Shown here in pieces: positions 5,840-31,055 of a DNA stretch of 32,162 bases; position 1 is the stretch's first letter; the number at the start of each line of letters is the position of its first letter. The notes beneath the pieces were generated by a model, which did no database searches, was not told where the DNA came from, and saw nothing but the letters and a program-made list of their open reading frames with translations. The DNA comes from a virus (lineage: Duplodnaviria > Caudoviricetes): the IMG/VR virus record IMGVR_UViG_3300032231_000014, positions 1-32,162 of that record. One strand, 5' to 3'. The position numbers were made by a program, and so were the translations under genes.

Positions 5840-6217
5840 TTAGACCAGTTTCTTGCGGTACATCTCCGGGTCAGCGACACCGGCCAGAATGTGATCGTCG
5901 TTCATCAACTGAAACGTACGACCATCGGCCAGCTCGATGCGCTGTGAGCCATATGTCGGATAGAGCACCCAGTCCCCAACGGCAAAGCGGGAGTCATCGA
6001 ACTTCTCCCCCTCGAACGCCTTGGGACCAACCGCGACGACCTGACCCACCTGATTCACAAACTCCTGATCACGCTGCACTTTTTCAGTGAACACGATCCC
6101 CACTTCCGATTCTTCCTTCGGTTGAAGCGGCCTGATCAGCACCCGCCAGAGGGTTGGTGCCGGTAGCTCGGCCCTGATCTCCTCGACCGGGGGCTTGAAC
6201 TTGGTCTCTCCGCTCAT
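5840..6217 (-). CDS. GroES/Cpn10-like co-chaperonin
   Basis: PxPTLWRVLIRP...GIV...GQVVAVGPKAF...VGDWVLY..YGSQ...LMNDDHILA matches the GroES pattern. Confidence 0.88.
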   Translation of the reverse strand: MSGETKFKPPVEEIRAELPAPTLWRVLIRPLQPKEESEVGIVFTEKVQRDQEFVNQVGQVVAVGPKAFEGEKFDDSRFAVGDWVLYPTYGSQRIELADGRTFQLMNDDHILAGVADPEMYRKKLV

Positions 6218-10735: not shown

Positions 10736-11037
10736 GCGGGCACTCCCTCCTTAGGCCAGAAGTCAGCAAGACTTTCGACCAGCTCGATCTTCTGAGCTGT
10801 CCCCAGCTCGTGCCACTCCTTGCGCACTGCGTGATCAGGCAGCAGCATGTTCCGGTCGCTGTGGCGTCTCTCAGCAAGGTAGAGCGTGTGGTCAACGTTC
10901 ACCCTGATCACCTGAGGGTCGTCTGTTCCTGCAGGGCGAATCCCCTGCAGAGTGTCTATCGTCCACGCAATGCGGACAGCTCTCGGTTTCATGTTGCCTT
11001 GCGCTGCATCCGTGCATCCCTGACATGTCTCAACCAT
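10732..11037 (-). CDS. Hypothetical protein
   Basis: Probable start at ATG 11037 (GGGAG SD), 101 aa; stop overlaps the terL start. Confidence 0.55.
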   Translation of the reverse strand: MVETCQGCTDAAQGNMKPRAVRIAWTIDTLQGIRPAGTDDPQVIRVNVDHTLYLAERRHSDRNMLLPDHAVRKEWHELGTAQKIELVESLADFWPKEGVPA

Positions 11038-11083
11038 GATTGCTGCTCCCAGCACTATCCATACAAGCCACCACTCACTCCGC

Positions 11084-11833
11084 TTATTTGAGCCCAAGGA
11101 ACCCGACCACGGAGAGCAGTTTCTTCCTGATGTACTCACCGAACGAGCCGGGCAACTGGTGGTCGGCCCACATCACATCCCAGACAGCCTCTGAGATGCC
11201 GGCTGCACCAGTACCCGTAGAGGATCGAGCGATCAGCACCTGCGTGAAGGCTGACGGAAGGATAGGGCTGATAGGCGTCACTCCATCCTCTCCGACCGCA
11301 ACCAGATTCCCTCCGCCAACCTCGCACTGCACGATGTTGAATACCGAGTAATCGTCACCGATGTCGAAGTCATTGTCCGTGCCGTTCACCAGCGCCTTAC
11401 ACTCAAGCTCGTTGAGATCAACGACTCTGCGCACGTCAGTGATGGATCTATCACCCCAGTTGATGATGAAAGACCCCGGCTGAACATTGGCGCTCACGAA
11501 GTCAGCACTGTTGTCGATGAGCCTTATCCTGCCCCTCGGGTCAGTAACCGCCCCGGTAGTGACCGTCCCCGTCTCCGCTGGAGTGTACTGACCCTCAAAC
11601 TCAATGACGTTGTTGAGCAGGGTCGCGGTAATGGCGACCGCCAGGCCGCCTCCGAGATCTTCCTTCCCAGCCGCGTCAATCAGCTTCGGGTGAGTCGTTG
11701 CCTCAAACTGCTCCTCCAGAACTCTGGTGGTATCCACAGTGTCCTGCACGAGATAGCTCGTGGAGGGCGACCGCACCGTCTGAATTCGAGGGCTATCGAA
11801 GTAACTTTGGGAAATGTCAGTCCGCGTCGTCAT
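11084..11833 (-). CDS. Putative structural protein (fibre-cassette paralog)
   Basis: 249 aa; shares a repeat module with the 879 aa protein; C-terminal AVWD...PGSFG motif. Confidence 0.7.
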   Translation of the reverse strand: MTTRTDISQSYFDSPRIQTVRSPSTSYLVQDTVDTTRVLEEQFEATTHPKLIDAAGKEDLGGGLAVAITATLLNNVIEFEGQYTPAETGTVTTGAVTDPRGRIRLIDNSADFVSANVQPGSFIINWGDRSITDVRRVVDLNELECKALVNGTDNDFDIGDDYSVFNIVQCEVGGGNLVAVGEDGVTPISPILPSAFTQVLIARSSTGTGAAGISEAVWDVMWADHQLPGSFGEYIRKKLLSVVGFLGLK

Positions 11834-11834
11834 C

Positions 11835-12485
11835 TCAGTCCACCGACAATGGCTCCGTCATGGCTCGCTTGATCTGCCGATCCCGCTCCCGAACGAGGTT
11901 GATCGCATCACGCATGGCGAAGATGGATTCGGTCTCCTGCTTCACCGCATCGTCATAGCGATCTCGCTCCTCCTGAAACATCCCGATCTGCTTCCACAAC
12001 TCCTCATCAACGTACATCCGCAGACGCGCGTTGATGGGCTTCAGCTCTGCCATGAGCTGATGGAACCCGAGGGTGCCGGGGATAGGTCTCCCGTCCCTGA
12101 CCCACTCCTCGTTGTCGCTGTGCTCTTCCACCCACTTAGCGACATGCTCGGCGGCCATAGCATCGACCTCCTCCTGAGTCAGGTCGCCTTGCGGGTTCTT
12201 CAGCAGATCCGAGTACTTGCCAATGTTGGCCATCGCCGCCTGCTTGGCAGCAGCAAAGGTTTTGATGTTGGCTTCGCACACACGGATGTTTGCGTTGTAC
12301 TGCTCCTCAGTGCCGCGCGGGAACTGGCCGGTGATGCGGTCCACCTTCAGCCGACGCTGCTCCTCAATGAAGGCAGGCATCTGCTCGTACGCCTGCTCCC
12401 GCAGCCCCATCGGTAGCTCAGAGAGCTTCTGATTGTTGAGGCGCAGAGAAGCTACGCCTGTCTGCCCCTTATTTTCTTCACTCAT
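11835..12485 (-). CDS. Helical/coiled-coil hypothetical protein (possible assembly chaperone)
   Basis: 216 aa with AAGGAG SD; charged helical composition unlike its beta-rich neighbours. Confidence 0.7.
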   Translation of the reverse strand: MSEENKGQTGVASLRLNNQKLSELPMGLREQAYEQMPAFIEEQRRLKVDRITGQFPRGTEEQYNANIRVCEANIKTFAAAKQAAMANIGKYSDLLKNPQGDLTQEEVDAMAAEHVAKWVEEHSDNEEWVRDGRPIPGTLGFHQLMAELKPINARLRMYVDEELWKQIGMFQEERDRYDDAVKQETESIFAMRDAINLVRERDRQIKRAMTEPLSVD

Positions 12486-12495
12486 CGGTTACTCC

Positions 12496-15135
12496 TTACA
12501 CCGCGATGGTGTCTTCCTGTCGTACCGCCGTGATCGTCACCGAGCTATCACCGATAGTCTGGTTCAGCGAGAAGGGCAGAATCACCTTGCCCTGCCGCAC
12601 TTCAACCACCACATCGAAGTCCGCACCCAGTTGCTTCACGAAGCTGTTGGACTCAGTGCCCGGAGAGCCATCCGTACCAGTGTCCTCTTCAACGTCGAGG
12701 ATGAGGTCGAACAGATCGTCCGTGTTGGCGTAGGTCTGGATCAGACGGTTGATGATGTAGGTGTCGGTGCTATCCCAGTCGTCCGGGGTGCCGTACAGAG
12801 CCCTGACCAGCAGGGTGTCGTTCGACGTGAGTCCGGTCGTCGCGAAGCCCGTCACCTCCCACACGTGAGTCGTCTTGCCGAGCGTGGTGTTGCGCACCAG
12901 CATCCCCACCTGAACACCGTCAGTCAGGAAGTTCCTGCCATCATCCACGAGCTGGGTTGCACTGGAGCTGGCTGTCGCCGTTCCCGTGTTACCGCCCGTC
13001 AGGGTGATCAGCGAGAACTCGCCAGAGGCCACCTTTGTCACCGCATCGTAGTAGTACCTGTGCTCTTCGATCAGGGAGTTTTCTTTCACCCTCACCACAG
13101 AGGCGTCAGGCACCTCAGAGTCAATGGTCCCCGCCACGCGGATGGTGTCGTCGTCTTGGTTGTTGAAACCCAGTCCAGCCGTGGCCATGCCACCGAACTG
13201 ATCCCGGTTGATTACACCAGCCGTACCGTTGTCCCGAGCCACCATGATGCGGTCGCCCGCGCGGGTGTTCTGCACCGCCACCGAGATGGTGTTGGGCGGG
13301 TTCAACGGAGTGGCCGAGTTGTCCGGCGTTGCTGTGTACGCCTGCGTGTCTGCAGGTGCAGGGTTGACGATGATCACGCCCCGGCTCAGGAAGAGCTGGG
13401 AGCCCGTGAACGTGCCCAGAGGCGACTGCTTGCTCACCGTGTAGCGCTGGATGCCCAGTGTGCCACCGGCATGGATCGTCACGTCCCGGACACCATCACC
13501 GCCCTCGTCAGACACCAAATCGTCATTGGCAGGCTGAGAGGTCGTCAACGAAGTCTGGATGTCCATCATGACGATGTAGCTCGGCACCGAGTCAGCCGGC
13601 GTAGTGTTCTGTGCCGTCAGTCTCGCCGAGAAGCCAGCCCGAGCCGTGATGCTCAGATCCTCGCCATCATTCATGGTGGAGGTGTTGGCGTCGTACTCGA
13701 ACGTACCCTCGTTGCCGCGATAGGTCTCGCCCGGGACATTGGTGCCCGCGCCGAACAGATCGGCCGCAGTAGCCCCTCGTCGAGTCGCCCACTTGAACCG
13801 CTCATAGACCTTGGCCACCGGGACCAGACTCTGAGCATTCGCCGTGACCGAGTAGTTCTCGTTGGTGCCGTCACCGTCGAAGTCCACGTTGGTCACTGCA
13901 CCAAGAGCCAAAGTGACCGTGCCACCCTCGCCCGCGCCAGCATCGGTCGGCCCACCAGAGGTGTCCGAGACCACGTTGACCGTCGCCGCTCCATCACCAT
14001 CTGCAGCCGCGACATAGTCGTACTCGGTGATGGTGTCAGAGTTGGCAAAGTCAGTGAGGTCGCCTACCGGGTAATACTGAATCGTGATCGTCGGGTTGGT
14101 GCCCGAGACCGCCGTGATGATCCCCTTCTTCGTTGCGCTGGCAAAGTCGAGCCCCACGTAGAAGCCGTTGCCCACGTTGAACGTGCCAGACGACGAGGTC
14201 GTGGTGAACGTCCGGTAGCCAGTCGTGTTGTTGAGGTCTGGCTGGGAGGCCAACGGGAGAGCCGAGAAGCCACCACCAGATACGTTCAACCGGAAGTTGT
14301 CGTATAGAGCCGTGTACTGTCGAGCAAATACCTCAAGGTCACCGTCAGCAATCAGGCTACCGTTCACCTGTACCTGCGTGACAATGCTGATGATCCCCAG
14401 CGATACATTCGGGTCCGTGTCCCACCACTGGAAGGTGTTGGTGGCATGGTCAGACAGCTTGATCCGATTCTGAACCACGTACACCTCAGTGGCTGTGGGC
14501 ACAGAACCAATCGCCTGAATGGCTGGTGCCAGCATAGAACCAGAGCCGCCGTTGGAGCTGGAGTCAACCGAGCCCGTGCCGCCCGTGGCGATCAGGGTGC
14601 CGGTGCCATCGAACAGGTCGCCCGTAACCGGGGTCGAGTCGTCAGGTCTGATCCATGCGCACAGAGAGCCGTCTTGGTCGATGTCGAAGTCCAGCAACGT
14701 GCCGGTGTCGCCTGAGTCGCCCTGCGTGACTCGCCGACCAATGTCGCCTGCAGCGAAGTCGGTGCCCAGCCCTACCACGTAGTTGATCTTGATCACCCCG
14801 TGGCCGGCAGTGTCATTGTCAGGTCCAACAGTCTTCAGCGCCCAGTTCGCCGACCACGCGCCCTCCTTCAGCCACTCCATAGAGGAGCGCGGCATGAAGT
14901 AGTCGTTGGCCAACACGAACGCATTCGGCGTCGTTGGTGTCGCCGGGTTCTTGAAGGTCATTGCTTGGAAGTAGGAGGCGTTCTCAGCAATTGCCGAGTA
15001 GATCTCCAATGATTCGCGCACTGGACCGCTAATGCGCTCCACTTTGCGTAGCCCTGCCTGCCCGGCCAACTGATTGACGTTCTCGTCGTCGAACGAGATG
15101 CGCCAGTCACCGCCGAGGATGTCGAGTGTAGTCAT
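12496..15135 (-). CDS. Large putative structural (fibre/appendage) protein
   Basis: 879 aa, Thr/Gly/Asp-rich, beta-rich with internal repeats; GAGGT SD. Confidence 0.8.
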   Translation of the reverse strand: MTTLDILGGDWRISFDDENVNQLAGQAGLRKVERISGPVRESLEIYSAIAENASYFQAMTFKNPATPTTPNAFVLANDYFMPRSSMEWLKEGAWSANWALKTVGPDNDTAGHGVIKINYVVGLGTDFAAGDIGRRVTQGDSGDTGTLLDFDIDQDGSLCAWIRPDDSTPVTGDLFDGTGTLIATGGTGSVDSSSNGGSGSMLAPAIQAIGSVPTATEVYVVQNRIKLSDHATNTFQWWDTDPNVSLGIISIVTQVQVNGSLIADGDLEVFARQYTALYDNFRLNVSGGGFSALPLASQPDLNNTTGYRTFTTTSSSGTFNVGNGFYVGLDFASATKKGIITAVSGTNPTITIQYYPVGDLTDFANSDTITEYDYVAAADGDGAATVNVVSDTSGGPTDAGAGEGGTVTLALGAVTNVDFDGDGTNENYSVTANAQSLVPVAKVYERFKWATRRGATAADLFGAGTNVPGETYRGNEGTFEYDANTSTMNDGEDLSITARAGFSARLTAQNTTPADSVPSYIVMMDIQTSLTTSQPANDDLVSDEGGDGVRDVTIHAGGTLGIQRYTVSKQSPLGTFTGSQLFLSRGVIIVNPAPADTQAYTATPDNSATPLNPPNTISVAVQNTRAGDRIMVARDNGTAGVINRDQFGGMATAGLGFNNQDDDTIRVAGTIDSEVPDASVVRVKENSLIEEHRYYYDAVTKVASGEFSLITLTGGNTGTATASSSATQLVDDGRNFLTDGVQVGMLVRNTTLGKTTHVWEVTGFATTGLTSNDTLLVRALYGTPDDWDSTDTYIINRLIQTYANTDDLFDLILDVEEDTGTDGSPGTESNSFVKQLGADFDVVVEVRQGKVILPFSLNQTIGDSSVTITAVRQEDTIAV

Positions 15136-15136
15136 T

Positions 15137-18100
15137 CTACGTTACCTCAAATTTTCCTATGGTGTCTTCAAGCCAGACGGCGGTAGCGGTCAGCCCTGTA
15201 TCAGTTACTGTGCGGACTGCGTTCCCCGATTGAGGGAAGGCAAGGTAGCGAGTCGCGTCTACTCTGACGCTTCTCGCCCGCGTTTGGTTTGCACTTCCGA
15301 CAGTGGACAGACGAGCGCGCACGTAATAGAGCTGTCCGCCATTGGCCTGATTTGTCACCGTCGTTGTTGCCCAGTCGCCGGGCACGGTCCATTCAACAAT
15401 CTGACCGTGTCCAGTGTTCTCAAAGTCGCTTGTATCGTCCCTTCCTACCGTGAGAGCTGACCATGCCAGCCCATCCCAGTACTCCCACGTGATGGTCGAG
15501 CCCGTGCCGTTGCCATCCGTAACCCAGAACTTCAGAGCAGGGAACTGCTCTGTATGCCCGAAGTAGTAGGCATCATTCAGGGCCGGCGCGGCCGGCAGGA
15601 TGTTCATGTCGTCGAGAGTGTCGTCAGTGGACTGTTCTGTCTCGTCAGTGAATACGCCACCGTCATCGGCTATGGCTGCCACAGCATGGCCGGGGTTGTT
15701 ACACCGGAAGTTGATGTCGAAGTCAGCGCCAGGGTAGATGAGCGTGAAGGAAATCAGCCCGGCAGATGTGGCGAAGCCCTCGAACAGGATATCTCCTGCC
15801 GTGATGCCGCCCACCGTGTCTCTCGACTCCACCACCACTGCAGTGCCTTGAGAAACACCGTTGACCACAATGGTGATGGTCTGGACCGGAGAGAACTGAC
15901 TCCCGTCATCCGCAGTGAGGTAGTCAATGATCCCCGTACCACGGTCGTGAATCCATACGCCCTCACCGTTTATGACAGAGTTCAAAAGATCCCCAGACCC
16001 GAAGCCATCAAGCCTGCCGGCCGGTGCGGCATCGCCCTCTGCAAATACTCCAACTCGACCGCTGGCAATATTCGACCTGTTCACCCCATCAACAAAGCGA
16101 GCCTCTTCGGTGCCGTTGACGAACATGATAAGTGCCTGGCCTATTGCCACGAACTGGAGAATATCAGTTGCTGAAGGGGTGGACGCACCAGTAGCGAGAG
16201 TGGTGATGACGCCTGCGCTGGTGCTGAAGTCAACGTGCACGATCTCATAAGTGTCAGGAGTGCCCTCCGCCACGATAGCCGCGTAGCACTGCTCAGAAGT
16301 CGTGTCGATCCTGAGTGCAATCCCTAACCTATCTCCAGCCGTTGGCAGCGCCGAGAGCGTTGCCTCTACATACTGAGCAGCAGTTGGATTATGGGCTGTT
16401 GTAGCCACCGCGCCGACGTTCGTGGTGCCTGCCGAGTTATCCCCTGCCAGGGCATTCGAGACCACTCGCATCCCGTTGGTGGCATTGTCAACGTCATCCC
16501 AGTTTGCGCTGACCGATAGATTCTCATCCGTCCGGTTGAAGTCATCTGTGAAGTCACGAGTCGCACCGGATAAAACCTGCCCGTTCCATCTGCGCACCGC
16601 TCTGGGGGTAAACCATCCGTCCGATCCAAGGGAGAGCGGCAAGCGCGCATCAAACTCATCACCACCCCAAACAATGAGCTGCTCGAATTCGGCCGTAATC
16701 GGACTCTCCGCCATGCGGGCGCTGATGTAGTCGTACACCACAGTCAAAGCCTCGCCCTTGGCGTCAATCTCCCACGTGTACTCGGCATAGAATCCAGTAC
16801 CACCTTCAAGGTTGGTGGTGGCGCTGAATGTTCCAGTGTCGGTGATAGTCTGGTTCTCGGCGAACTCAACGCCATTCCATCCATCAAGCAGTATCACCCC
16901 GGAAACAGCATTGCCTTCATAGTCAACGATTGTGCCGCTGGCCAAGCCTTGGGTGGCAGTCACGCCCAACGTCGGTGTCCCGCCAGTTCCACCATCATAG
17001 TTCAGAGCCTTCATCGGGCGCGTGTCGGTTTCTCCCGGGCCATGCTTGGTGACGGTCGGGTTCGTGGTGGGGTTTGTCAGAGCGGCCGACTGGGTTAGAG
17101 CAGTCAGGTCAGGGTCGTCTACAAAAGCAGACGATAACCGGAGGCCTCCGTCTAAGACAGGCTCGAAAGAGATCCGCACTGGCTGAGATCCATAGGAGTA
17201 ACCTGACCACGCAAAAAATTCTCCTTGCTGATCAGCCACACCGGAGCCAGCACCTATGCCATCCCATGTGTACAAGTTGGTTCTGACGTAGCTGGCATAG
17301 GCGATCTCCCCCCATAGCTCCATGAAGCGGAAATCATTCCCGTAGTAGTTGTGCGAAGTGCCAGTCGGAATCCGCCCAGTTCCACCCTCGCCGGGAGCGG
17401 CCGGTATTGTGGCGCTATCACTGACGGCAGTGTCTCCCTTGTACAAGTCATCTGCTTGCGCGCCTTCAAACACATAGCCGTGGATGCCGGCAAGTTGATT
17501 ATTTTCTGCATCTACACAAACCACAGAAAGAGAGACCATCTCCTCAATCTGCCTACTTGTACTATCATTGAACTGCAAGTTGTCTTGGTTGCTTAGATCC
17601 AAGGTCCAGACCGGATTGCAGATGCTTACCTTCTGATCCGTGCCTGCAGTATCCAAAGACATGTAGCGAGTATTGCCGATGAACGTGATGTCTCTCAGCC
17701 CGGCCGGGTACTGAAACGTATCAGAGAAATCCCTCACCCGAATTCCTTGATCGGGGGAAGCCGTGAGATCTTCGCTCTTTATGACAAGGCCCTGAATCCA
17801 CGTGTAAGGGCCGTATGGTGTTCTGTCAGTCGAGACTTCATAGAGCGCCTCGTAGAGAGACCCTGGCCTACCGCTGTTCGCGGAGCGCTCCAGAACAGTG
17901 TCTCTAAACAGGCGGCCCTGCGTGGCCATTTGCGAGGTCGTGCTCGGGGAATCTATGTCTAGCCACTTGTTTCTTAACATCGCCCCGCCAAGACCTATTG
18001 CGAATGTTGACTGGATCTCTCCTCCGGTTGAAGTAAGAAAGCCCACGTTGACCATGTTCGGGGCATCTCGTGGAGCACGCATCTGCAGGTCGTACGCAAA

Positions 18101-19024
18101 TACGAGACTGTGGTCTTTGAAACGGAATGGCGTGCCGGCAGTCAGAGTCCCTGACGTGGATATGTATCCACCTGCTGTCGGCAACCCGTTCGGATGCCCG
18201 CCGATCAAATACCCGGACTGATACACGCCATCATCATCCACCCCGAGGCCTGTCGCACTCGTGACGTTATCGGTCTCAAACTGCTTGCCGTCGGTTTGAG
18301 CAAAAAACCCGAGCTGGGTACCGGATGGCGAGGCGTTGCCAACACTGAATGCCCTGCTGAACTCAAACACACCAGATTGAGCCCGAAGCGTGCAGCCGGT
18401 CACTGTGGCGCAATCTTCAAGGATATAGGCTATCGCCCAGTTATCCCCGGATGCGGGCGGATCGACCCATGGCTCATGGACCGTCAAAGTGTTTGAAGCG
18501 TCTGCTGTGATGTAGCGAATCTCGAAGCCAGGCTCAACCGCCACAACCCTGAAGGTCGCGCCCGTGCCAGTTCCGCCTGTCGACGTTGTTGTCGCAGTTG
18601 GCGGAGAAGGCCCTCCGGTCATGCCGGAGGCCCGCCACTCGAACCCCTCCTTCCTTGTGATGTCGAACCCAGTAATGGCACCCCCGCCATCGACTGAGGT
18701 CACCGTGATTTGGGGCAGGCCTGCCGGTGCTGCAGCAGACGACCCTCCAATCGTCAATACATCGTCGACTGCATAGCCGCTACCCTCATTGTCCGACTGG
18801 AGCGCAGTGACATACACGACCCACGGGCGGATGACGATGATCCTGCCAACATAGGTTGGCGTGGATTCTAGGTTGCCTTCGTTGTTTGCCGAAATGGCGT
18901 CTGGGACTATGACTTCATCAGCGGCAGCAGCGGCCTGAGACCCGAGTGTAGAAGCCGTTCCCCATGAATCTTTCGCCGCAGTCGTACACCTTACGCCGTC
19001 GCCCGAACTGGTGGTGATACTCAT
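15137..19024 (-). CDS. Large multidomain putative structural / receptor-binding protein
   Basis: 1295 aa, Thr/Gly-rich; GSGY...GTGATF repeat unit, lectin-like beta-sandwich segment (FTDDFNR...GRVGVF) and C-terminal WEYWDG...YYVRARL domain. Confidence 0.8.
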   Translation of the reverse strand: MSITTSSGDGVRCTTAAKDSWGTASTLGSQAAAAADEVIVPDAISANNEGNLESTPTYVGRIIVIRPWVVYVTALQSDNEGSGYAVDDVLTIGGSSAAAPAGLPQITVTSVDGGGAITGFDITRKEGFEWRASGMTGGPSPPTATTTSTGGTGTGATFRVVAVEPGFEIRYITADASNTLTVHEPWVDPPASGDNWAIAYILEDCATVTGCTLRAQSGVFEFSRAFSVGNASPSGTQLGFFAQTDGKQFETDNVTSATGLGVDDDGVYQSGYLIGGHPNGLPTAGGYISTSGTLTAGTPFRFKDHSLVFAYDLQMRAPRDAPNMVNVGFLTSTGGEIQSTFAIGLGGAMLRNKWLDIDSPSTTSQMATQGRLFRDTVLERSANSGRPGSLYEALYEVSTDRTPYGPYTWIQGLVIKSEDLTASPDQGIRVRDFSDTFQYPAGLRDITFIGNTRYMSLDTAGTDQKVSICNPVWTLDLSNQDNLQFNDSTSRQIEEMVSLSVVCVDAENNQLAGIHGYVFEGAQADDLYKGDTAVSDSATIPAAPGEGGTGRIPTGTSHNYYGNDFRFMELWGEIAYASYVRTNLYTWDGIGAGSGVADQQGEFFAWSGYSYGSQPVRISFEPVLDGGLRLSSAFVDDPDLTALTQSAALTNPTTNPTVTKHGPGETDTRPMKALNYDGGTGGTPTLGVTATQGLASGTIVDYEGNAVSGVILLDGWNGVEFAENQTITDTGTFSATTNLEGGTGFYAEYTWEIDAKGEALTVVYDYISARMAESPITAEFEQLIVWGGDEFDARLPLSLGSDGWFTPRAVRRWNGQVLSGATRDFTDDFNRTDENLSVSANWDDVDNATNGMRVVSNALAGDNSAGTTNVGAVATTAHNPTAAQYVEATLSALPTAGDRLGIALRIDTTSEQCYAAIVAEGTPDTYEIVHVDFSTSAGVITTLATGASTPSATDILQFVAIGQALIMFVNGTEEARFVDGVNRSNIASGRVGVFAEGDAAPAGRLDGFGSGDLLNSVINGEGVWIHDRGTGIIDYLTADDGSQFSPVQTITIVVNGVSQGTAVVVESRDTVGGITAGDILFEGFATSAGLISFTLIYPGADFDINFRCNNPGHAVAAIADDGGVFTDETEQSTDDTLDDMNILPAAPALNDAYYFGHTEQFPALKFWVTDGNGTGSTITWEYWDGLAWSALTVGRDDTSDFENTGHGQIVEWTVPGDWATTTVTNQANGGQLYYVRARLSTVGSANQTRARSVRVDATRYLAFPQSGNAVRTVTDTGLTATAVWLEDTIGKFEVT

Positions 19025-19248
19025 GGGAGCGTCTCCATGAAGTCAGCAACCACCTCGACGTTGTCGGCAATAGATACAGTCTTGTAGATGTGGGTCTGTC
19101 CCTGCGCGTTAACCTGAAAAAGCTGACGGTTCTGCACGAGCCGCCATTCGATGATCCACTGACTGTTGCCAAGCATCGGCCCATCGTCGAAATTTACCGG
19201 CACTGTGTCTGACTGTCCGCCACCCGGATCAAGATCCACCAAAGGCAT
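19021..19248 (-). CDS. Hypothetical protein
   Basis: 75 aa; abuts the upstream stop and overlaps the next start (ATGA). Confidence 0.6.
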   Translation of the reverse strand: MPLVDLDPGGGQSDTVPVNFDDGPMLGNSQWIIEWRLVQNRQLFQVNAQGQTHIYKTVSIADNVEVVADFMETLP

Positions 19249-19779
19249 TTAGATTTTCCCGTGCGCGGCAGTGAACGCTGTGCAGATCAGCGCTCGCCTG
19301 CGAATTCGGCCAATAGAGGGGCGAACTCCGTGAAGGATTTTCCCATCGACCAGCACACCGAAAGTCGGGATACACGAGATGGTGTGAATTTCGTTCGCTA
19401 CGTCGTCGTGGACGGTCGTCTCGCCACCCTCTTCAGGACAGGAGACGTAGAAGATCAGTGTGCGTCCATGGTCCCAGCCATGACGATGCGGGAAGCCCTG
19501 CACCCAGTTGCGAGTGGCGTCGGTGCGACTCTGCTCGTCGAGGACTGAGATCCACCACTTGTAGCCTGACGCCGGGTAGCCCAGCTCCTTGAACACGGAC
19601 TTGGCCCAATCCTCGAAGCCAAGCTCTTTGGGCGGCGGGCGCTCCATAGTGTGGGCACCCTGCACTCGATCATTGTTGATCTTGGCCCACTCTTCGTCGA
19701 TGTAGTTAGCCATAGCCTGCAGAGGAGCGTCGTCCCAACGCACCTCGGTGTAGAGCGGAGTTGCCTTCACCAGTTCCAT
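19249..19779 (-). CDS. Putative 2OG-Fe(II) oxygenase (DSBH fold, HxH variant)
   Basis: PHRH...TLIFYV...EGGET...LVDGKILHGV...RRAL: metal ligands, GG motif, distal His and 2OG-binding Arg. Confidence 0.72.
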   Translation of the reverse strand: MELVKATPLYTEVRWDDAPLQAMANYIDEEWAKINNDRVQGAHTMERPPPKELGFEDWAKSVFKELGYPASGYKWWISVLDEQSRTDATRNWVQGFPHRHGWDHGRTLIFYVSCPEEGGETTVHDDVANEIHTISCIPTFGVLVDGKILHGVRPSIGRIRRRALICTAFTAAHGKI

Positions 19780-19837
19780 ATCGAAGTCCTGTCGAAAGAG
19801 TGCGGGGGCACGTCATGTGCCCCCTGTCTCTGTTAGC

Positions 19838-20530
19838 TCAGGTAGTCCCTCCCTGAGGCGCATCGGCGCTCTTCAGTCCCTCACCCTCATCCACGTCGAT
19901 CTCGTCGGACCCGGTGAGCGTGTAAGCCCTCGGGTTCGCGTCCATCGTGCTGGCATACATGGCAGTGGCGTTTGCGACCGTCTTCATGGTCTGCCCCCTC
20001 ATGCCGGGTGAGAAAGACATTTTGAGTCCAGAGAAGCCTTCCAGTGCGGCCTTCCCCTCCAGACCTTCCATGAGGTACGTGAACAGCCACCTGTGCTGCG
20101 CCTGCTGGTGAGCGATCAGCTCGTCCAGTTTGGCCTTGGTGTACTCAGTGCTCGCGTTCTCTTGCCCGTCAGTGTGGATGATCATCTGCACTGGCCGGCT
20201 GTTGAACTGGAACTTACTGATCACGGCACCAATGGCATCGTAGAGCGGAGTCATGGCGTTGGGGACATAGTCCCTCTCGCTCAGGCGCTTCACTCTGGCT
20301 GGGCTCTCCTTGAAGAGCTTCTCCCTGATGCCGGTGCTGTCGAACGTGTAGAGACTGATGCTCTTGGCGGTCTCCTTCACGTCAGCCACGTACTCATTGA
20401 ATGTAGACACAACGGCCGACTGATGTGGTTGCATCGAGCCGGACTCGTCGAGCACGAATACCACGTCCGGGTGGACGATGGTCTCGGGCCGCAACGGTGC
20501 GCCTATCGGATCGTTGACGATGTCTATCAT
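19838..20530 (-). CDS. von Willebrand factor A (vWA) domain protein
   Basis: MIDAS DxSxS (FVLDESGSM), TPLYDAI, HTDGQENAS; start refined to ATG 20530 with GAGGA SD (230 aa). Confidence 0.85.
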   Translation of the reverse strand: MIDIVNDPIGAPLRPETIVHPDVVFVLDESGSMQPHQSAVVSTFNEYVADVKETAKSISLYTFDSTGIREKLFKESPARVKRLSERDYVPNAMTPLYDAIGAVISKFQFNSRPVQMIIHTDGQENASTEYTKAKLDELIAHQQAQHRWLFTYLMEGLEGKAALEGFSGLKMSFSPGMRGQTMKTVANATAMYASTMDANPRAYTLTGSDEIDVDEGEGLKSADAPQGGTT

Positions 20531-20531
20531 C

Positions 20532-21062
20532 TCAGTTTCCTCGTTGCAGGTTTGCGGGTACTTGCTGGGCCACCAATGCAACTCTTGGTGATCCCTCCCA
20601 GTTGTGGAAGCCGTGTTCCAGCTTCCCGTCGAACACCACAGTCAGCCCCTTGTGAGGTCTCACTACACAGGGCTGATCGAGCGGCTCTCCCCAGACGACA
20701 AGCGGAGCGCCCGCGCCGGGTTCGAGGTAATGCACGATAGACCTGTAGGCATAACCGTGAGTGTGCGGATAACCGTCTGCCCATGCTGTCTCGGGCAGGC
20801 CGGCCATGTGTTTGGTGACCACTGCGTAGAGGTTGATCTCTCCCACCTCTGGGTACGGACCCAGCACCTGCAGGACGTGCTGACGAAACGCGCTCATTGC
20901 CGGCCCGTCCCAGTGGTCAATCACGCAGCTCCCGGGGGAGTTGATGATCGGCACGTGCTCCTGCCTGACCTTGGACATGAGGTCGCCCCACGCATACGCC
21001 GGATAGTCCCACTCGTGAGTGGTTACCATCATCTTGGCATCATGGTAGGGCGCTATGTCCAT
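20532..21062 (-). CDS. Putative 2OG-Fe(II) oxygenase (DSBH fold, HxH variant), paralog of 19249-19779
   Basis: PHTH...SIVHYL...GLTVVFDGKLEHG...RVAL. Confidence 0.7.
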   Translation of the reverse strand: MDIAPYHDAKMMVTTHEWDYPAYAWGDLMSKVRQEHVPIINSPGSCVIDHWDGPAMSAFRQHVLQVLGPYPEVGEINLYAVVTKHMAGLPETAWADGYPHTHGYAYRSIVHYLEPGAGAPLVVWGEPLDQPCVVRPHKGLTVVFDGKLEHGFHNWEGSPRVALVAQQVPANLQRGN

Positions 21063-21316
21063 CAGCCGTTGATGTCCGTCTTGACCCGGCCAGTGCCGAG
21101 AACGTCGCCGTCCTCATCCACCAGTCCCACCTCGCGCACAACCTGCACCTCGCGAGAGTCGCCCAGCAGAACCTCACCAGCGACAGCGGGCACCCCGTCA
21201 TCAAGCTCAATTGACCACGCCCTCGCGCCCTCATGGCGGGTTAGCAGGTTGATCACGTTGCCGACATCCTTGTGCACTCCCTGCACGTTGCCGTCTATCA
21301 CTACGATGTAGCTCAT
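21062..21316 (-). CDS. Hypothetical protein
   Basis: 84 aa; coupled on both sides. Confidence 0.6.
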   Translation of the reverse strand: MSYIVVIDGNVQGVHKDVGNVINLLTRHEGARAWSIELDDGVPAVAGEVLLGDSREVQVVREVGLVDEDGDVLGTGRVKTDING

Positions 21317-21441
21317 CGCGGTATCACCTTGTTCCTGATCTCATCCCACAGGTTGCGAGCCCAATCAGGCTTCTCGCACACAACCCACCCAGTGCCGAAG
21401 CCTGCCGCGAAGGACAGGCCGACAATCAGCATCGTGCTCAT
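21313..21441 (-). CDS. Small single-pass membrane protein
   Basis: Hand-translated 42 aa MSTMLIVGLSFAAGFGTGWVVCEKPDWARNLWDEIRNKVIPR; ATGA overlaps at both ends. Confidence 0.6.
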   Translation of the reverse strand: MSTMLIVGLSFAAGFGTGWVVCEKPDWARNLWDEIRNKVIPR

Positions 21442-21707
21442 GCGGCAGCCGGGGGCGCGTCGTCACCGCCCGTCGCCTCTGTGTCAGTCGAGGGTTGGTC
21501 GGAAGATGGGGAGCCATCCTCGACTGTATCTGGCTCTCCGTCCTTTGGCGCTTCACCAGCCGGTGCCGGCACCTCAGACAGCACGGTCAGCCCGCCAGCG
21601 AACATCGCCTTGAACTGCTCCTTGGCGTCGTACTTGCTCTCAGCCTCGACCACTTCTTCCATGGCTTCGCCTGCTTCACCATATCCCTTTCCCTTGAAGT
21701 AGGGCAT
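21438..21707 (-). CDS. Hypothetical protein with acidic low-complexity tail
   Basis: 89 aa from ATG 21707 with AAGGAG SD. Confidence 0.6.
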   Translation of the reverse strand: MPYFKGKGYGEAGEAMEEVVEAESKYDAKEQFKAMFAGGLTVLSEVPAPAGEAPKDGEPDTVEDGSPSSDQPSTDTEATGGDDAPPAAA

Positions 21708-21708
21708 C

Positions 21709-21807
21709 TCATCTTCTCCTTTGGCCAATCGGCCTCTCACGTTGTGACGCTGGCCGCCCTACCGCATTCAAGCGGCGACGCCCAGCCTCGATTTCTTCTG
21801 CGCTCAT
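21709..21807 (-). CDS. Small basic peptide
   Basis: 32 aa MSAEEIEAGRRRLNAVG...; ATGA overlap with the upstream ORF and fills the gap exactly. Confidence 0.4.
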   Translation of the reverse strand: MSAEEIEAGRRRLNAVGRPASQRERPIGQRRR

Positions 21808-22034
21808 GTCTTTTGGGTAGACCCATGGCTTTCGTCCACCACAAGTAGAGCAGGTCTCATCCCATACAGTTCTTCTATCTCCGCACCCGACACAGTACGC
21901 GGGCTCCTCTCCGTTGTTATGTCGAACGCCAGCCTCTGGAACCCCTCCATGCCGAGCCTGTTGATCAGCTCCTTCTGCCATTCCGGTAGCGGCTCCCCGC
22001 TCACCATCTCCAAGTAAGCCGTCAGCTCCATCAT
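21804..22034 (-). CDS. Mini-protein with terminase/helicase-like Q-motif and Walker B fragments
   Basis: 76 aa; GEPLPEWQKELI and GMRPALLVVDESH; ATGA-coupled. Confidence 0.6.
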   Translation of the reverse strand: MMELTAYLEMVSGEPLPEWQKELINRLGMEGFQRLAFDITTERSPRTVSGAEIEELYGMRPALLVVDESHGSTQKT

Positions 22035-22645
22035 GAGTACGAGAGGGACGCTCTATTGTCCCAGATATTGTCGAAGTTAGTATTGCCGTCCGCCCACTCC
22101 GTTGCGAGGTCATCGTTGCCACCTACGTCTGTCGTCACGGTGATGCGGCTCATGCGCCATACCGCCACGCTTGTCACGCTCCCTGCTGCAGCCTCGCCCT
22201 TGTAGATGATCTGCGGGCTGCCACCCTCATCGTCGATCTGTGTTGCCAGTGTCACTTCACCAATCCTCGAAACGAACGTCCACGTGGTGGGTCCGGTCTT
22301 CTCGTAGATGTCTCCGGCGGTCGTATTGTCCCAATAGGTATCTCCCGGATTTCCAGTCCCCGCACCGGGTGGACCTGCACCCTGAAGAAAGCTGAGCCCA
22401 TCACTGCCATTGACTCCGGGTATGCCGGGTATGCCTTGGCTGCCCTGCTCGCCTGGCTCTCCCTGAGGCCCTGCAGGACCCCGTGGAGGTACTGTGCTGC
22501 CCTCGCCCTCGTCATAGCCCTCCTCATAGGCTCTCCAGCTCCGAGGGACGGTGTCGATGTTGTACGGGTTCTCACGTGGCCTTCCGAACACTCCGTCGTT
22601 GTACCCGGTCTGAAACGCTATACGCTCCTGTCCTGAGTACGCCAT
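22031..22645 (-). CDS. Collagen-like repeat protein with RMF-like N-terminus
   Basis: Gly-X-Y run, then a GxPxxxxGxxGDxYxD..GxxYxK...W motif and a C-terminal YxGEA...VWR...WADG...WDNRASLSY domain. Confidence 0.75.
   Translation of the reverse strand: MAYSGQERIAFQTGYNDGVFGRPRENPYNIDTVPRSWRAYEEGYDEGEGSTVPPRGPAGPQGEPGEQGSQGIPGIPGVNGSDGLSFLQGAGPPGAGTGNPGDTYWDNTTAGDIYEKTGPTTWTFVSRIGEVTLATQIDDEGGSPQIIYKGEAAAGSVTSVAVWRMSRITVTTDVGGNDDLATEWADGNTNFDNIWDNRASLSYS
22397..22480 (-). repeat. Collagen (Gly-X-Y)9 repeat
   Basis: GPAGPQGEPGEQGSQGIPGIPGVNGSDG. Confidence 0.9.
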
Positions 22646-22647
22646 GA

Positions 22648-22839
22648 CTAATTTTCCTGAGCATCAACACTTTGTGGTAACAGCGGCTCCAGTAAGAGCC
22701 TCACTCGCTCTGCTGCCTTCCAGTCGTCGTACAGCCCCCCTCCGCGCTCCACGTCATGGAGCCGCTCCTTGGCCAGCGAGTACAACCTCTGCAGGTCATG
22801 AGAGTCCACCTCTACGGTAGTCTTAGTCGCTGTCGCCAT
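22648..22839 (-). CDS. Hypothetical protein
   Basis: 63 aa ORF filling the operon. Confidence 0.55.
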   Translation of the reverse strand: MATATKTTVEVDSHDLQRLYSLAKERLHDVERGGGLYDDWKAAERVRLLLEPLLPQSVDAQEN

Positions 22840-23044
22840 CTTCGCTCTCTGGTGGTATCAGGATGATCTCTCTTGTCCCGCACTTCATGCACTCGGTCGG
22901 AATGGCCTTGTGCTCCTTTCCCAGCCACGTGGAGTAACTTCGCCCGTCCCACTCTCCGCGTACGCCATCGCTGAGCCCGCACTTATGACAGTCGGCCACC
23001 ACGATATTAGGTCTCTCGTCGCCTTTCTTGCCTATCGCACCCAT
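22823..23044 (-). CDS. Zinc-ribbon protein
   Basis: CHKC...CMKC pairs; TGATG coupling. Confidence 0.6.
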   Translation of the reverse strand: MGAIGKKGDERPNIVVADCHKCGLSDGVRGEWDGRSYSTWLGKEHKAIPTECMKCGTREIILIPPESEDGDSD

Positions 23045-23328
23045 CAGCTCACCTTCACCCGCAGCCAGCCGGTGGGGCCTGGTATGTCTGGGCTGGCCGG
23101 CAGTGTGAATACCCTGGCTGCCACGTTCTCCTTGGTCGCCCGCATCGAGTCAGCAAGCGCCTTACCCATGGCGTCTGAGTACGCCTCTCGGTCATAGGGG
23201 ATCGTTGCGCCCTCTCTCTTGGGTTGAGCCATGCCGAACAGTGCCACGCCGTCGTCATTCACACGGCCCTTGAGCACCCCAGCCACAGCCATGACGCTCA
23301 CACCACGCAGAAATCCTCGCCTATTCAT
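23044..23328 (-). CDS. Twin-arginine-motif mini-protein containing major-capsid-like segments
   Basis: MNRRGFL + hydrophobic stretch; KREGATIPYD and KALADSMRATKE match the window's MCP. Confidence 0.7.
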   Translation of the reverse strand: MNRRGFLRGVSVMAVAGVLKGRVNDDGVALFGMAQPKREGATIPYDREAYSDAMGKALADSMRATKENVAARVFTLPASPDIPGPTGWLRVKVS

Positions 23329-23915
23329 CGGTCCACACTCTCGTCCCAGTCAAATTCCGGCAGATCGAGCGGCGTCTCTCTCACCTTCGTGATCGAACCC
23401 TGCGGGCCTATCGTGTCAGGAGCCACAAATCCCGGCCACAACTGGACCTCCCTGCCATCAGGGAGCTGCGCCCTCACTGAGAAATCGTCCTTTCCCCCCT
23501 TGCCCTCCACATTCTCTACAGAGCATGTCTCTTCCATATCGACCCGCTGGTGTGTCTTGGAGCCGGGGATGCTGTGGATCGAGACCGCATCCTGAGCACC
23601 TTCGACAACAATCCACTCGGTCAGGCTGCCCTCTGCGCGCTTCCTGTTGCTCCATGATGCCCTCGCGGTCATGCGTACGTGGCGTTGCTGGGTCTCGAAG
23701 TCCTTCCACTGCTGGGTCTGGGGCCTTCTACGCCACATGGCGATGGCTGGCTTCTGCCCTTCCACGCGCTCCGTGAGCTGGTGCACAAACTCCGCCAGAT
23801 GCTCATCGGTGTACTCGGTGGGATCGACATCACACACCGCCGTGAAACCGCAGTAGCCGTCCTCAACCTGAGGATCGCCCGCCGCTATGTACCTGATTGC
23901 CAGCCCGTAGATCAT
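23325..23915 (-). CDS. Hypothetical protein
   Basis: 196 aa; ATGA overlaps at both ends. Confidence 0.65.
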   Translation of the reverse strand: MIYGLAIRYIAAGDPQVEDGYCGFTAVCDVDPTEYTDEHLAEFVHQLTERVEGQKPAIAMWRRRPQTQQWKDFETQQRHVRMTARASWSNRKRAEGSLTEWIVVEGAQDAVSIHSIPGSKTHQRVDMEETCSVENVEGKGGKDDFSVRAQLPDGREVQLWPGFVAPDTIGPQGSITKVRETPLDLPEFDWDESVDR

Positions 23916-24067
23916 TTCCGCTTCTTCCCTCTGCGCTCATGCTTGCCGGTAACCGGCCTGTCCGGGTGCTGCGAATTGTAGATGCGCGCCGCCTTGGTCT
24001 TTGCGGCCTTGCTGCTCATCCCCTCGGAAATGAACTTGTCGCGCATCTTCTCGTAGCCGCGTGGCAT
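23912..24067 (-). CDS. Small basic protein
   Basis: Hand-translated 51 aa MPRGYEKMRDKFISEGMSSKAAKTKAARIYNSQHP...; coupled on both sides. Confidence 0.65.
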   Translation of the reverse strand: MPRGYEKMRDKFISEGMSSKAAKTKAARIYNSQHPDRPVTGKHERRGKKRK

Positions 24068-24270
24068 TAGCCCTTCTTCTCTCGACCACGGCCCATAGCA
24101 TGTCTCACGCCTGCCATGTCCACCCCACCAGTGGATGAATGCTTGCTGCCACCGCGCTCAGCCCGCTCTCTCGATGCCGGCTTGGCCTTGGCCTTGGCCT
24201 TCTTGCCGCGCTTGGCTGCTGCAGTGCCTGCGCCTTGATCAAACTGCCCAAACTCTCTCTGTCTACTCAA
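24067..24270 (-). CDS. Lys/Arg/Ala-rich small protein
   Basis: TTG start overlapping the upstream TGA; 67 aa, KRGKKAKAKAKP. Confidence 0.5.
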   Translation of the reverse strand: MSRQREFGQFDQGAGTAAAKRGKKAKAKAKPASRERAERGGSKHSSTGGVDMAGVRHAMGRGREKKG

Positions 24271-24533
24271 TGACTTATGCTCCCCGCTGGAATTACGATT
24301 TTGCTGCCGGTCTCGGCCTCCATCTTCTCCCTGTGAGCGTTGTCCACCATGCCTTTCAGGACGTTGTACATCTGCCACACCGCATACTGCGCTGGCGTCA
24401 TATCCTCCGTCTTCTGCGGAACCGGGTCGTCCTCACCCAGCCCGAAATCAAAAGCGAACTCGAAATGCGTGTCGTCGGGCTCAGCGCCCTCTGGCAGATC
24501 GAGGTCATTCACCATCAGGTAGCAGCGCGGCAT
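24267..24533 (-). CDS. Hypothetical protein
   Basis: 88 aa from ATG 24533 (TGATG coupling), MPRCYLMVNDLD...MTPAQYAV. Confidence 0.6.
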   Translation of the reverse strand: MPRCYLMVNDLDLPEGAEPDDTHFEFAFDFGLGEDDPVPQKTEDMTPAQYAVWQMYNVLKGMVDNAHREKMEAETGSKIVIPAGSISH

Positions 24534-24751
24534 CAGGGGTTCACCGCCGACCTTGAGAGATCCACCTTGCTCCCTCCCACCAGCCGGCCCACGCTCCCAT
24601 CCGAGCGAAGGCTCTTCCTGCCCGGCGGCAGAGACAGCATGTGTAGCTGGAAATTCCTTGCAAATTCGCGCTCTGATGGGGTGCTGTCTTCGATGCACGA
24701 CGGACAGATGCTCCTGTTCGTCGGTCCCAGACACATGTTGCATTCGTTCAT
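24533..24751 (-). CDS. Zinc-finger-like small protein
   Basis: CNMC...CPSC; ATGA overlap with the terS stop. Confidence 0.55.
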   Translation of the reverse strand: MNECNMCLGPTNRSICPSCIEDSTPSEREFARNFQLHMLSLPPGRKSLRSDGSVGRLVGGSKVDLSRSAVNP

Positions 24752-25317
24752 GCTGCCTCCGTTGCTGTGCTGTCGATGGCCTTCCGGTCCATCGCTCTCT
24801 CCATGAGCGAGGCGATCTCGTCCAGCTCGTCCTGCTCCATCTCCTCGAACGGGTTGCCCTTGCTCTTGGCTCCGTCCTTGGCTCCGATCCCGTAGTGCTC
24901 ACCCAGCCTGCCGAGAGCCGCCATCTTGTCGTGGAACTCGTAGGTGAACTCCTGCACCACCTCGCCCTCATCGTTGGGGCGCATGGTGCGGATGTTGATT
25001 TTGCTGATGGCCATCTTCTGCTGCTCGGTCAGCTCCTCTGGGGGCTTGGCGACGTACACGCCATCAACGATCTTGAAGTAGCTGTCCACCCGGTTCAGGG
25101 CTATGGCTGCCAGCTCGGTCAGAACCCGGCCAGTGTCGAGCACCATCTGCTCTTGAGCCCGCTCCATCAGCCAGTTGATCTGCTCCTGAACGTGCGGTCG
25201 GCGCAGGATGGACGCGCCGTTGCTCTGCGGGCTCTTGAACCCGGCTGCCTTGGCTGCCTTGGAAGCGTTGCGCTCCTTCACATACGCCATGCAGAAAGCC
25301 AGCTCACGAGTGTTCAA
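24748..25317 (-). CDS. terS: Terminase small subunit
   Basis: FCxxYxxxxNASKAAxAAGF...LxxPxVxxxI...RVLxELAAIA...DKMAALxxLGxHxG pattern of the Terminase_2-type TerS. Confidence 0.88.
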   Translation of the reverse strand: MNTRELAFCMAYVKERNASKAAKAAGFKSPQSNGASILRRPHVQEQINWLMERAQEQMVLDTGRVLTELAAIALNRVDSYFKIVDGVYVAKPPEELTEQQKMAISKINIRTMRPNDEGEVVQEFTYEFHDKMAALGRLGEHYGIGAKDGAKSKGNPFEEMEQDELDEIASLMERAMDRKAIDSTATEAA

Positions 25318-28962: not shown

Positions 28963-29020
28963 GTCTTCACCGTCACGACAGGGTGGCGGCTCAAACTAAG
29001 CAATGACCGAGGAGGTCAAC

Positions 29021-30211
29021 ATGAAAAACGGAATGTCACTCGAAGCTCTTCTCACTGAAGTAGTTCGCCAGAACACCTCGAAGAAAGATTTCACCGCATC
29101 CACCAAGGACGCTGTGAGGATGGTCGATCAGGAAGGTCAGCTCTGGATTGTTCTGCTCAAAGATGGGTCAGGTGAGTTGGAACGTTTCGGCATCACCGAG
29201 AACGCGCATCGTCAGATCGCTACTCGTCTCGGTATCCCATGGAAGTACTACCAGCGACTGCTGAACGATCACCGCGATCTGGTGATTGCTCAGGTCAACG
29301 CTCTCTTCGAGCGTGAGCCAGAGTCTCGGCTGCTGCGCGTACTCGACGGCAAGGTCCGGGCTTTCCTGTCCAACCGTTACCGTCGGCTCGACAATGCTGA
29401 GGTGCTGGAGCAAACGCTTCCCGGCATCATCAAGGGCGACATCGCTACCACGATGCTCTCCAGCAACGTCGGCGAAAACAAGATGCACCTCAAGGTGCTC
29501 CTCACTGACGACTCGCTGGCTATCGACCTCGGAGATACTCCGCACGGTCGCAGCACCAACGGCTGGGACGTGACCACCGAAGACGTAGACGAGCAGCACA
29601 GAGTGATCGCCAAGCGCGACGCTGGCCGCGACATCGTCCGCCCGGGATTCGTCCTCTCGAACTCAGAGACGGGCCACGGCTCCCTGAGCATCAAGGGCTT
29701 CCTGTTTCGCTCGTACTGCCTGAACGGCTGCGTGTGGGGCGTCGAGGATGCCTTCTCCTTCAGCCGCAACCACGTGGGTGGCAAGCTGATCGAAGGGCAG
29801 GACTTCGAGGTCTTCACTGACGAGACGAAGAAGAAGCAGGACGAGGTGATCATCGCCGAGGTGAACGACGCGATGCAGACCATGGTCAACCCGGATCGGG
29901 TCCGCGCCATGGGCGAGCGCCTGAGGGCCATCAAGAACGGCGAGCAGGTACAGGACGCATTCGCGGCTGTCGATGCGCTGGCCAAAGAGGTGGATCTGCG
30001 CGAGTCCGAGAAGGAGTCCATCCTGACCAACTTCCTGAAGGACGGCGACTTCTCCCAGTGGGGCATGACCAATGCGGTCACCGAGTTGGCGAACGAAGAC
30101 GACGTGTCCTACGAACGCGCAACCGAGCTGGAGACCGTCGGCGCACAGATCATTCAGATGAATGCTCAGCGCTGGCTGAAGGTCGCAACGGCAGAGAAGG
30201 TCGCTGCCTAA
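29021..30211 (+). CDS. DUF932-like phage/plasmid protein
   Basis: 396 aa from ATG 29021 (GGAGG SD); AHRQIAxRLGIP..YY, RAFLSxRYRRLDN, SNSETGHGSL...CLNG, WGxxNAVT motifs. Confidence 0.75.
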   Translation: MKNGMSLEALLTEVVRQNTSKKDFTASTKDAVRMVDQEGQLWIVLLKDGSGELERFGITENAHRQIATRLGIPWKYYQRLLNDHRDLVIAQVNALFEREPESRLLRVLDGKVRAFLSNRYRRLDNAEVLEQTLPGIIKGDIATTMLSSNVGENKMHLKVLLTDDSLAIDLGDTPHGRSTNGWDVTTEDVDEQHRVIAKRDAGRDIVRPGFVLSNSETGHGSLSIKGFLFRSYCLNGCVWGVEDAFSFSRNHVGGKLIEGQDFEVFTDETKKKQDEVIIAEVNDAMQTMVNPDRVRAMGERLRAIKNGEQVQDAFAAVDALAKEVDLRESEKESILTNFLKDGDFSQWGMTNAVTELANEDDVSYERATELETVGAQIIQMNAQRWLKVATAEKVAA

Positions 30212-30969: not shown

Positions 30970-31055
30970 TGGTGGGGAGGGCAGGATTTGAACCTGCGCG
31001 TGATGTTGCAGATTTACAGTCTGCCGCCTTCGACCTGACTCGGCTCCACCTCCCC
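30970..31055 (-). tRNA. tRNA-Tyr (GUA)
   Basis: Acceptor GGGGAGG/CCTCCCC-A-CCA; anticodon arm GCAGA-CTGTAAA-TCTGC; T-arm GCAGG-TTCAAAT-CCTGC; D-stem GCC/GGC. Confidence 0.92.

Follow-up and report, generated by a model that had tools for sequence, protein, structure and literature searches.

Introduction

Terminase holds a central place among the triggers of bacterial pattern-recognition immunity. Avs2, Avs3 and Upx respond to terminases of diverse kinds, and PMC13601566 lists the role of terminase look-alikes among the open questions. Avs sensors envelop folded cores (PMC13581612), and Avs2 requires a large shape-complementary pocket, burying ~2800 square angstroms on the folded domain, whereas Upx has been modelled with unfolded ATPase strands bound (PMC13601566). 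Three phage proteins, vs.8, Ksap1 and Ksap2, are described as activating Avs2 and as keeping a beta-sheet (PMC13601566, PMC11564622). T4 vs.8, a protein of 219 aa, is an accessory terminase-ATPase homologue encoded beside an intact TerL (terminase large subunit); it keeps Walker A, Walker B and the fold, and EcAvs2 is activated when the two are co-expressed (PMC13601566). Ksap1 and Ksap2 are TerL-ATPase-like, contain a sheet of 4-6 strands and engage Avs2 so as to trigger defence, and they are considered possible anti-defence proteins (PMC11564622, PMC13601566). A further phage protein, TerI (65 aa), is expressed in lysogeny and binds TerS, the small terminase subunit; the available text of the preprint points to no terminase homology (bioRxiv 10.1101/2025.02.27.640495).

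Here we analyse an ORF of 76 aa, P0001 (positions 21804-22034, minus strand; strain variants P0002 and P0003), in a window that comprises a whole linear virus record of 32 kb (32,162 nucleotides), 46% complete as estimated by CheckV. Like vs.8, P0001 is found in a phage with an intact TerL and has features of a terminase ATPase, but BLASTP gives no alignment between the two. From Ksap1 and Ksap2 it is set apart by the descriptions of these proteins, which have the sheet and no motif-level homology. With TerI it shares a small size (~65-76 aa for the two) and the possibility of acting on the terminase complex.

A short ORF with two terminase motifs

The WQ motif of P0001, GEPLPEWQKELI, occupies residues 13-24, with the tryptophan at position 19, and a Walker-B-like motif, GMRPALLVVDESH, with Asp67, is found at residues 58-70 (21825-21863, minus strand). 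The latter has the form GxxPxxhhhDExH, from which a pattern was derived that mainly returned TerL, and includes the hhhhDE of a Walker B motif at residues 63-68. The WQ motif forms part of a helix-loop-helix hairpin (residues 2-28; 21951-22031, minus strand), which is supported by identities to two sequences described below, in the L343 ORF and at the C-terminus of a phiHQ protein, and by pLDDT; presumably it corresponds to the adenine-binding or Q motif region. The ORF stops 8 residues beyond the DE, with no nuclease domain and nothing more after Walker B. The first-pass annotation had described an ORF of 76 aa with WQ and Walker B motifs and without a P-loop. The translation agrees with this, and GK[ST], sought across all 76 residues, is absent. 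The further statement that there is no Walker A holds for the GK[ST] signature but not for the position, as a related miniprotein, L492, has an intact Walker A that falls on residues 43-47 in the alignment. At this likely degenerate strand and P-loop position (residues 39-47; 21894-21920, minus strand) Arg43 is retained and PR is found in place of GK, an assignment that is not fixed by any search pattern and comes from this one relative.

The predicted model of P0001 contains helices only. When predicted with an alignment, residues 1-30 have pLDDT values of 85-97 and residues 31-76 values of 52-59, which would suggest that the WQ hairpin folds by itself and the remainder of the protein does not. 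A Rossmann-like beta-sheet core is seen in none of the models, the C-terminal half of which is of low confidence. Fold searches with the model gave no significant match, a result that excludes nothing.

P0001 is one of several small genes that follow each other in the interval from terS to terL, on one strand. The window phage is a podophage in which the major capsid, portal, adaptor, TerL and TerS genes are all on the minus strand. Its own TerS (24748-25317, minus strand; PF03592, E 1e-19) is encoded upstream of P0001, and an intact TerL of a different family (9107-10735, minus strand; phrog_38, E 5e-77) downstream. The start of P0001 overlaps the preceding gene, which encodes a collagen-like protein (22031-22645, minus strand) and is conserved in relatives without the miniprotein, by ATGA, the same type of junction as is found throughout the operon. 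P0001 looks like a real gene, because of this overlap and because the codon score for the whole ORF is 0.25, as compared with 0.06 for the 99th percentile of 16 off-frame windows of the same length. Codon usage is native over the first 43 codons (GC3 0.88) and atypical over the last 33, with a GC3 of 0.48 and a score of -0.09 that would be at about the 1st percentile of true genes. A strain contig differs from P0001 by two nonsynonymous and no synonymous changes, too few for a judgement on selection, the changes in the upstream gene being mostly synonymous. An overlapping frame on the same strand, P0013 (21709-21981, minus strand), which would encode CxxC-x10-CxxC and a helical tail, was considered as a real gene and rejected, having no homologs and a codon score of -0.24. 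Its last 32 codons (21709-21807) would fill the space before the next gene, which they would overlap by ATGA.

Relation to terminase ATPases

No homologs of P0001 beyond strain variants at 97-99% identity were found in protein collections, no true homologs among 1.8 billion representatives, none in viral contigs and no match in a sequence search of the PDB. Two phmmer matches (E 5e-6 and 9e-5) were discarded as repeat-rich unrelated proteins, and a metagenome scan returned P0001 itself, one strain and a chance match of 25 residues in an unrelated protein of 355 aa. A two-segment profile gave nothing new among 125 candidates and, in a run made without a positive control, matched none of 43 related records, 16 of which are at least 90% complete. 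Behind the collagen-like gene P0001 is absent from all five syntenic relatives inspected.

Comparison with terminase profiles, the check proposed with the first-pass annotation, gave a divided answer. Pfam and PHROG families, terminase profiles included, do not match P0001 at E values up to 10, and DpdE is a sub-threshold match (E 0.007). The more sensitive comparisons gave scores that are low and mostly above those of shuffled sequences. Against a profile of the N-terminal region of 16 HK97-type TerLs P0001 scores 7.6 bits, which 2 of 2000 shuffles and 1 of 1990 decoy ORFs also attain. For the Walker B segment the score is 6.8 bits, reached by none of either (0/2000 and 0/1990), with a profile set that was chosen using P0001's own motif. 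Scored against 55 TerL hairpins, on the other hand, it reaches only 2.7 bits, under the best shuffle at 11.3. With hhalign the probabilities for two TerL sets are 10% and 13%, higher than for any of the 150 shuffles. For the phage's own TerL family the value is 0.4%, with 35 of 150 shuffles as high, in keeping with the earlier proposal that the source was another terminase family; as had also been claimed, the resident TerL has KIVVDD and no such hairpin. ESM features, taken as a lead only, match P0001 to terminase clusters at 0.82-0.83. Residues 1-45 match unnamed viral clusters of 40-69 aa at 0.92.

The assignment of the motifs to the terminase type is upheld. The order of WQ hairpin, strand at the P-loop position and GxxxxxhhhDE is that of the TerL ATPase (PF03354 TerL_ATPase, PF03237 Terminase_6N and the phrog_2/phrog_9 types), the hairpin having the spacing of short-spacer TerLs and the Walker B being that of PF03354. 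In contrast to the TerL ATPase, where 121-136 residues separate the tryptophan from the aspartate, this distance is 48 residues in P0001, which at 76 aa has no GK[ST], no region for the coupling motif after Walker B and no profile match. By Walker A, spacing and profile score P0001 falls outside the TerL ATPase family, but it is likely derived from it, an internal deletion in a foreign TerL ATPase being the likely origin. It is very unlikely that P0001 hydrolyses ATP, since the P-loop lysine, 75-90 residues of the core and everything after Walker B are absent (for the ATPase anatomy see PMC9958956); the catalytic death predicted in the first-pass annotation would follow from the loss of the lysine and of the core residues.

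A class of terminase-motif miniproteins

P0001 belongs to a broad unannotated class of terminase-motif miniproteins of 42-160 aa that are missed by profile searches. We define the class as short closed ORFs that encode the hairpin, with or without Walker B, and no working ATPase, in a record with an intact TerL elsewhere, as is the case for P0001. All members were retrieved by degenerate DNA patterns made from the motifs of P0001, so that the conservation of these motifs within the class is circular. The first of these, a Walker B pattern, gave 120 loci and was swamped by full TerLs; 16 of the 20 ORFs tested match PF03354, one of them under the cut-off, the others being two helicases and two short ORFs with a lone Walker-B-like strand. 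With a strict pattern that includes the Walker B proline, no short two-motif ORF was found in 22 loci. At L112:1431-1760 and L123:1372-1914 there are short phage ORFs in which the Walker-B-like strand stands alone, the former with a zinc ribbon in addition and placed directly before HNH and terS genes.

The hairpin pattern gave at least 120 loci in IMG/VR, with a stop in the core in none of those listed, as against 47 of 120 in a prokaryote-genome control. Among the hairpin-pattern matches listed, GK[ST] is present in 88 of 89 long or open ORFs and in none of the 31 short ones. From the short loci we excluded 11 of one family that lie off-frame over another ORF and two that are doubtful, which leaves at least 18 loci and at least 17 distinct ORFs without Walker A. 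Frameshifted TerLs were dismissed as the source of the short matches, a nearby Walker A in another frame being found for 2 of the 31, in both cases that of an adjacent intact TerL ORF. The two-motif pattern gave 59 loci, 17 of them in frame without a stop (12 long proteins and 5 short ORFs). The short ORFs (L492/L515, L503, L547 and the positive control L284) are four distinct sequences, in which only 35-45 residues separate the hairpin from Walker B.

The L492 ORF, of 70 aa, has terS on one side and an intact terL on the other. It retains the hairpin, Walker B and an intact Walker A but has lost the middle of the domain, and its alignment with residues 9-69 of P0001 is collinear, at 26% identity. 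In L503 a degenerate P-loop is fused to Walker B, while L547 and L284 have no P-loop. In L547 and its orthologue L274 a strand resembling the first nuclease strand of TerL is placed ahead of the hairpin. These two ORFs (L547:1473-1961, L274:1940-2380) begin with a conserved N-terminal domain, which precedes the nuclease-like strand and the hairpin, and only L547 has Walker B. There is at least one close match to the hairpin of P0001: the 45-aa ORF L343, which lies before terS in the complete record G044 and is the closest among the matches listed, is identical at 15 of 26 positions (58%) to residues 2-27, most of the identities being at positions not fixed by the pattern. The C-terminal tail of a phiHQ protein of 389 aa is identical to the hairpin at 11 of 23 positions. 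Whether homologs of similar short length are conserved had been named as a check; proteins of similar build with WQ and D[DE] are indeed found, but these residues were imposed by the patterns.

Against a profile of 15 other miniproteins, themselves selected by pattern, P0001 scores 39.7 bits, compared with 6.9 for the best shuffle and 7.0 for the best decoy. The miniprotein profile matched 4 of 401 genomes of one phylum, with three long ORFs and one match to the seed; matches in 2 of 32 related records were judged to be chance. Class members also match four PHROG families, phrog_15503, phrog_18152, phrog_2074 and phrog_29027, all of 'unknown function', with E values of 8e-14 for L248, 2e-5 for L360, 1e-4 for L503 and 0.035 for L343. 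Two of the families, phrog_15503 and phrog_2074, also weakly match an intact TerL, and none of the four matches P0001. The ORFs at L248:1968-2441 and L360:1944-2309 encode larger proteins that resemble a degenerate TerL ATPase and have no GK[ST] (phrog_15503). Literature searches, mostly outside subscription papers, gave no description of such miniproteins.

An intact TerL is found in the same record as L492, L503, L547, L274, L343, L283, L292 and L309, and the miniproteins in these eight records are therefore not broken sole copies. In several other member records, including that of CR5, no TerL was found with three Pfam models, which carries little weight for fragments and divergent families. 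On sequence comparison the miniprotein pieces differ from the resident TerL. L492, L503, L292, L301, L309, L343, L274 and L547 are situated either in the terS-terL interval or no more than ~4 kb upstream of terL, but short IMG/VR contigs are likely enriched in terL, which would inflate this positional link. Hairpins also occur at a distance from packaging genes, for instance in the jumbo phage CR5, and some form the C-terminal tail of another protein. In CR5 (JX094500), a cultured Cronobacter phage, the hairpin is encoded by an unannotated 42-aa ORF between CR5_171 and CR5_172 (L243:1953-2078), with a purine-rich stretch upstream. Selection within the class is mixed. The whole proteins of the pair L345/L353 are under purifying selection (dN 0.06, dS 0.67), with a dN/dS of ~0.4 for the hairpin alone, whereas L258/L300 give a dN/dS of ~1 or more; for L274/L547 the substitutions are saturated.

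Possible roles of P0001

The reading that we tentatively prefer, doubtful as it is, is that P0001 acts as a decoy for a terminase sensor. An internal deletion in a foreign TerL ATPase domain would have left a small gene keeping the WQ hairpin and the Walker B strand. The catalytically dead product would be expressed late, together with and ahead of TerL, and would occupy the sensor of the host without triggering it. A sensor of the Upx type, reading isolated strands, would fit better than Avs2, which reads the whole fold; by analogy with the Upx model, a short piece could supply such strands. We favour the decoy because the pieces are foreign, occur far from packaging genes as well and have their motifs reordered, and because P0001 lies upstream of terL on the same strand. 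Being unlike the resident TerL, the pieces would suit a target that ignores sequence, and a nuclease strand ahead of the hairpin, as in L547 and L274, would not result from simple decay. Counting against the decoy are the activation of Avs2 by its known look-alikes vs.8, Ksap1 and Ksap2, the helices-only model of P0001, when the known triggers of Avs2 carry a sheet, the mixed selection, the absence from relatives and the atypical last 33 codons, as well as the low score against TerL hairpins and the hhalign values of 10-13%.

Next in plausibility, and itself rather doubtful, is that P0001 is a relic. It would be what remained, after terminase replacement, of the 5' end of a terL that was either an earlier resident or captured, and that was eroded by in-frame deletion and is translated through coupling with no selected function. 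Many members lie near terL and differ from the resident TerL, as would be expected of such stubs; there is no purifying signal in P0001 or L258/L300, the tails vary freely, P0001 is missing from relatives, and the remnants that could be recognised would be only those keeping motifs. A relic does not readily account for the nuclease strand before the hairpin in L547 and L274, for hairpins that extend conserved proteins at the C-terminal end or stand alone away from packaging genes, or for the same collapsed layout with different linker lengths in unrelated phages, and the proximity to terL counts for less if short contigs are enriched in this gene. Less probable than either of these is the decoy idea when extended to the class, namely that phages of many lineages build miniproteins from only the conserved active-site motifs of terminase (the adenine-binding hairpin, the Walker B strand and sometimes the first nuclease strand, in shuffled order) as linear-epitope decoys that would be expressed just ahead of TerL and would jam Upx and Avs1-3, forming a widespread class of PAMP mimics. 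If they are decoys for bacterial terminase sensors the miniproteins matter, and the class, some members of which are unannotated even in the cultured CR5, is a cheap panel for testing the use of decoys against these sensors by phages. As relics, they would still be a record of terminase replacement and a warning that such motifs need not mean an enzyme.

It seems unlikely that the hairpin serves as a portable module for binding, co-opted outside terminase sensing and packaging for oligomerisation or for another host protein. The confident prediction that it folds by itself, its occurrence in stand-alone form (42-45 aa) and attached to other proteins, and the match of residues 1-45 to short unnamed viral clusters would all be consistent with this, but the Walker B and nuclease strands that accompany it are left unexplained. 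Still less probable is a modulator of packaging, that is, a dead subunit or competitor of TerS, TerL or portal that times the phage's own packaging or blocks a competing phage with a similar TerL. Contacts between TerS, TerL and portal are usually cognate, and this argues against such a role for a piece from another family than the resident TerL, as does the presence of members far from packaging genes. In its favour, members are often found in the terS-terL interval and small inhibitors exist, TerI (65 aa) binding TerS and Ppi and Gpi also being cited (bioRxiv 10.1101/2025.02.27.640495). Finally, P0001 could be an orphan ORF in which two motifs mimic TerL by chance, or a native hairpin gene of 43 codons that runs into unrelated DNA. 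The lack of any Pfam or PHROG match apart from the sub-threshold DpdE, of a true homolog in the large representative set and of typical codon usage at the 3' end would all agree with chance, which is nevertheless very improbable given the 26-residue identity to L343, mostly away from pattern-fixed positions, the collinear alignment with L492 and the shuffle tests.

Other features of the window

In the window ~14 kb separate terS from the downstream terL (9107-25317), with large tail-like and accessory genes between them. In the relatives L067-L069 terS is likewise upstream of the collagen-like gene, the product of which is conserved in L067-L072 and has an N-terminal segment resembling ribosome modulation factor (Pfam RMF, E 0.002, under the cut-off). 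The strain contig L232 is without ~750 bases of the window (22683-23439), and in the comparison of 23440-24139 with L232 the 196-aa ORF differs by mostly nonsynonymous changes; in that frame it may not be under constraint as a gene. Two genes of 176 aa with HxH-like motifs, the products of which we take to be 2OG-Fe(II) oxygenase-like, flank a gene for a vWA-domain protein (phrog_7371, E 2e-26) at 19249-21062 on the minus strand, and one of the two matches phrog_274 (E 2e-4). Cpn10, encoded by the phage within its head module, a DUF932 protein and a tRNA-Tyr are among the features at 5840-6217, 29003-30211 and 30970-31052.
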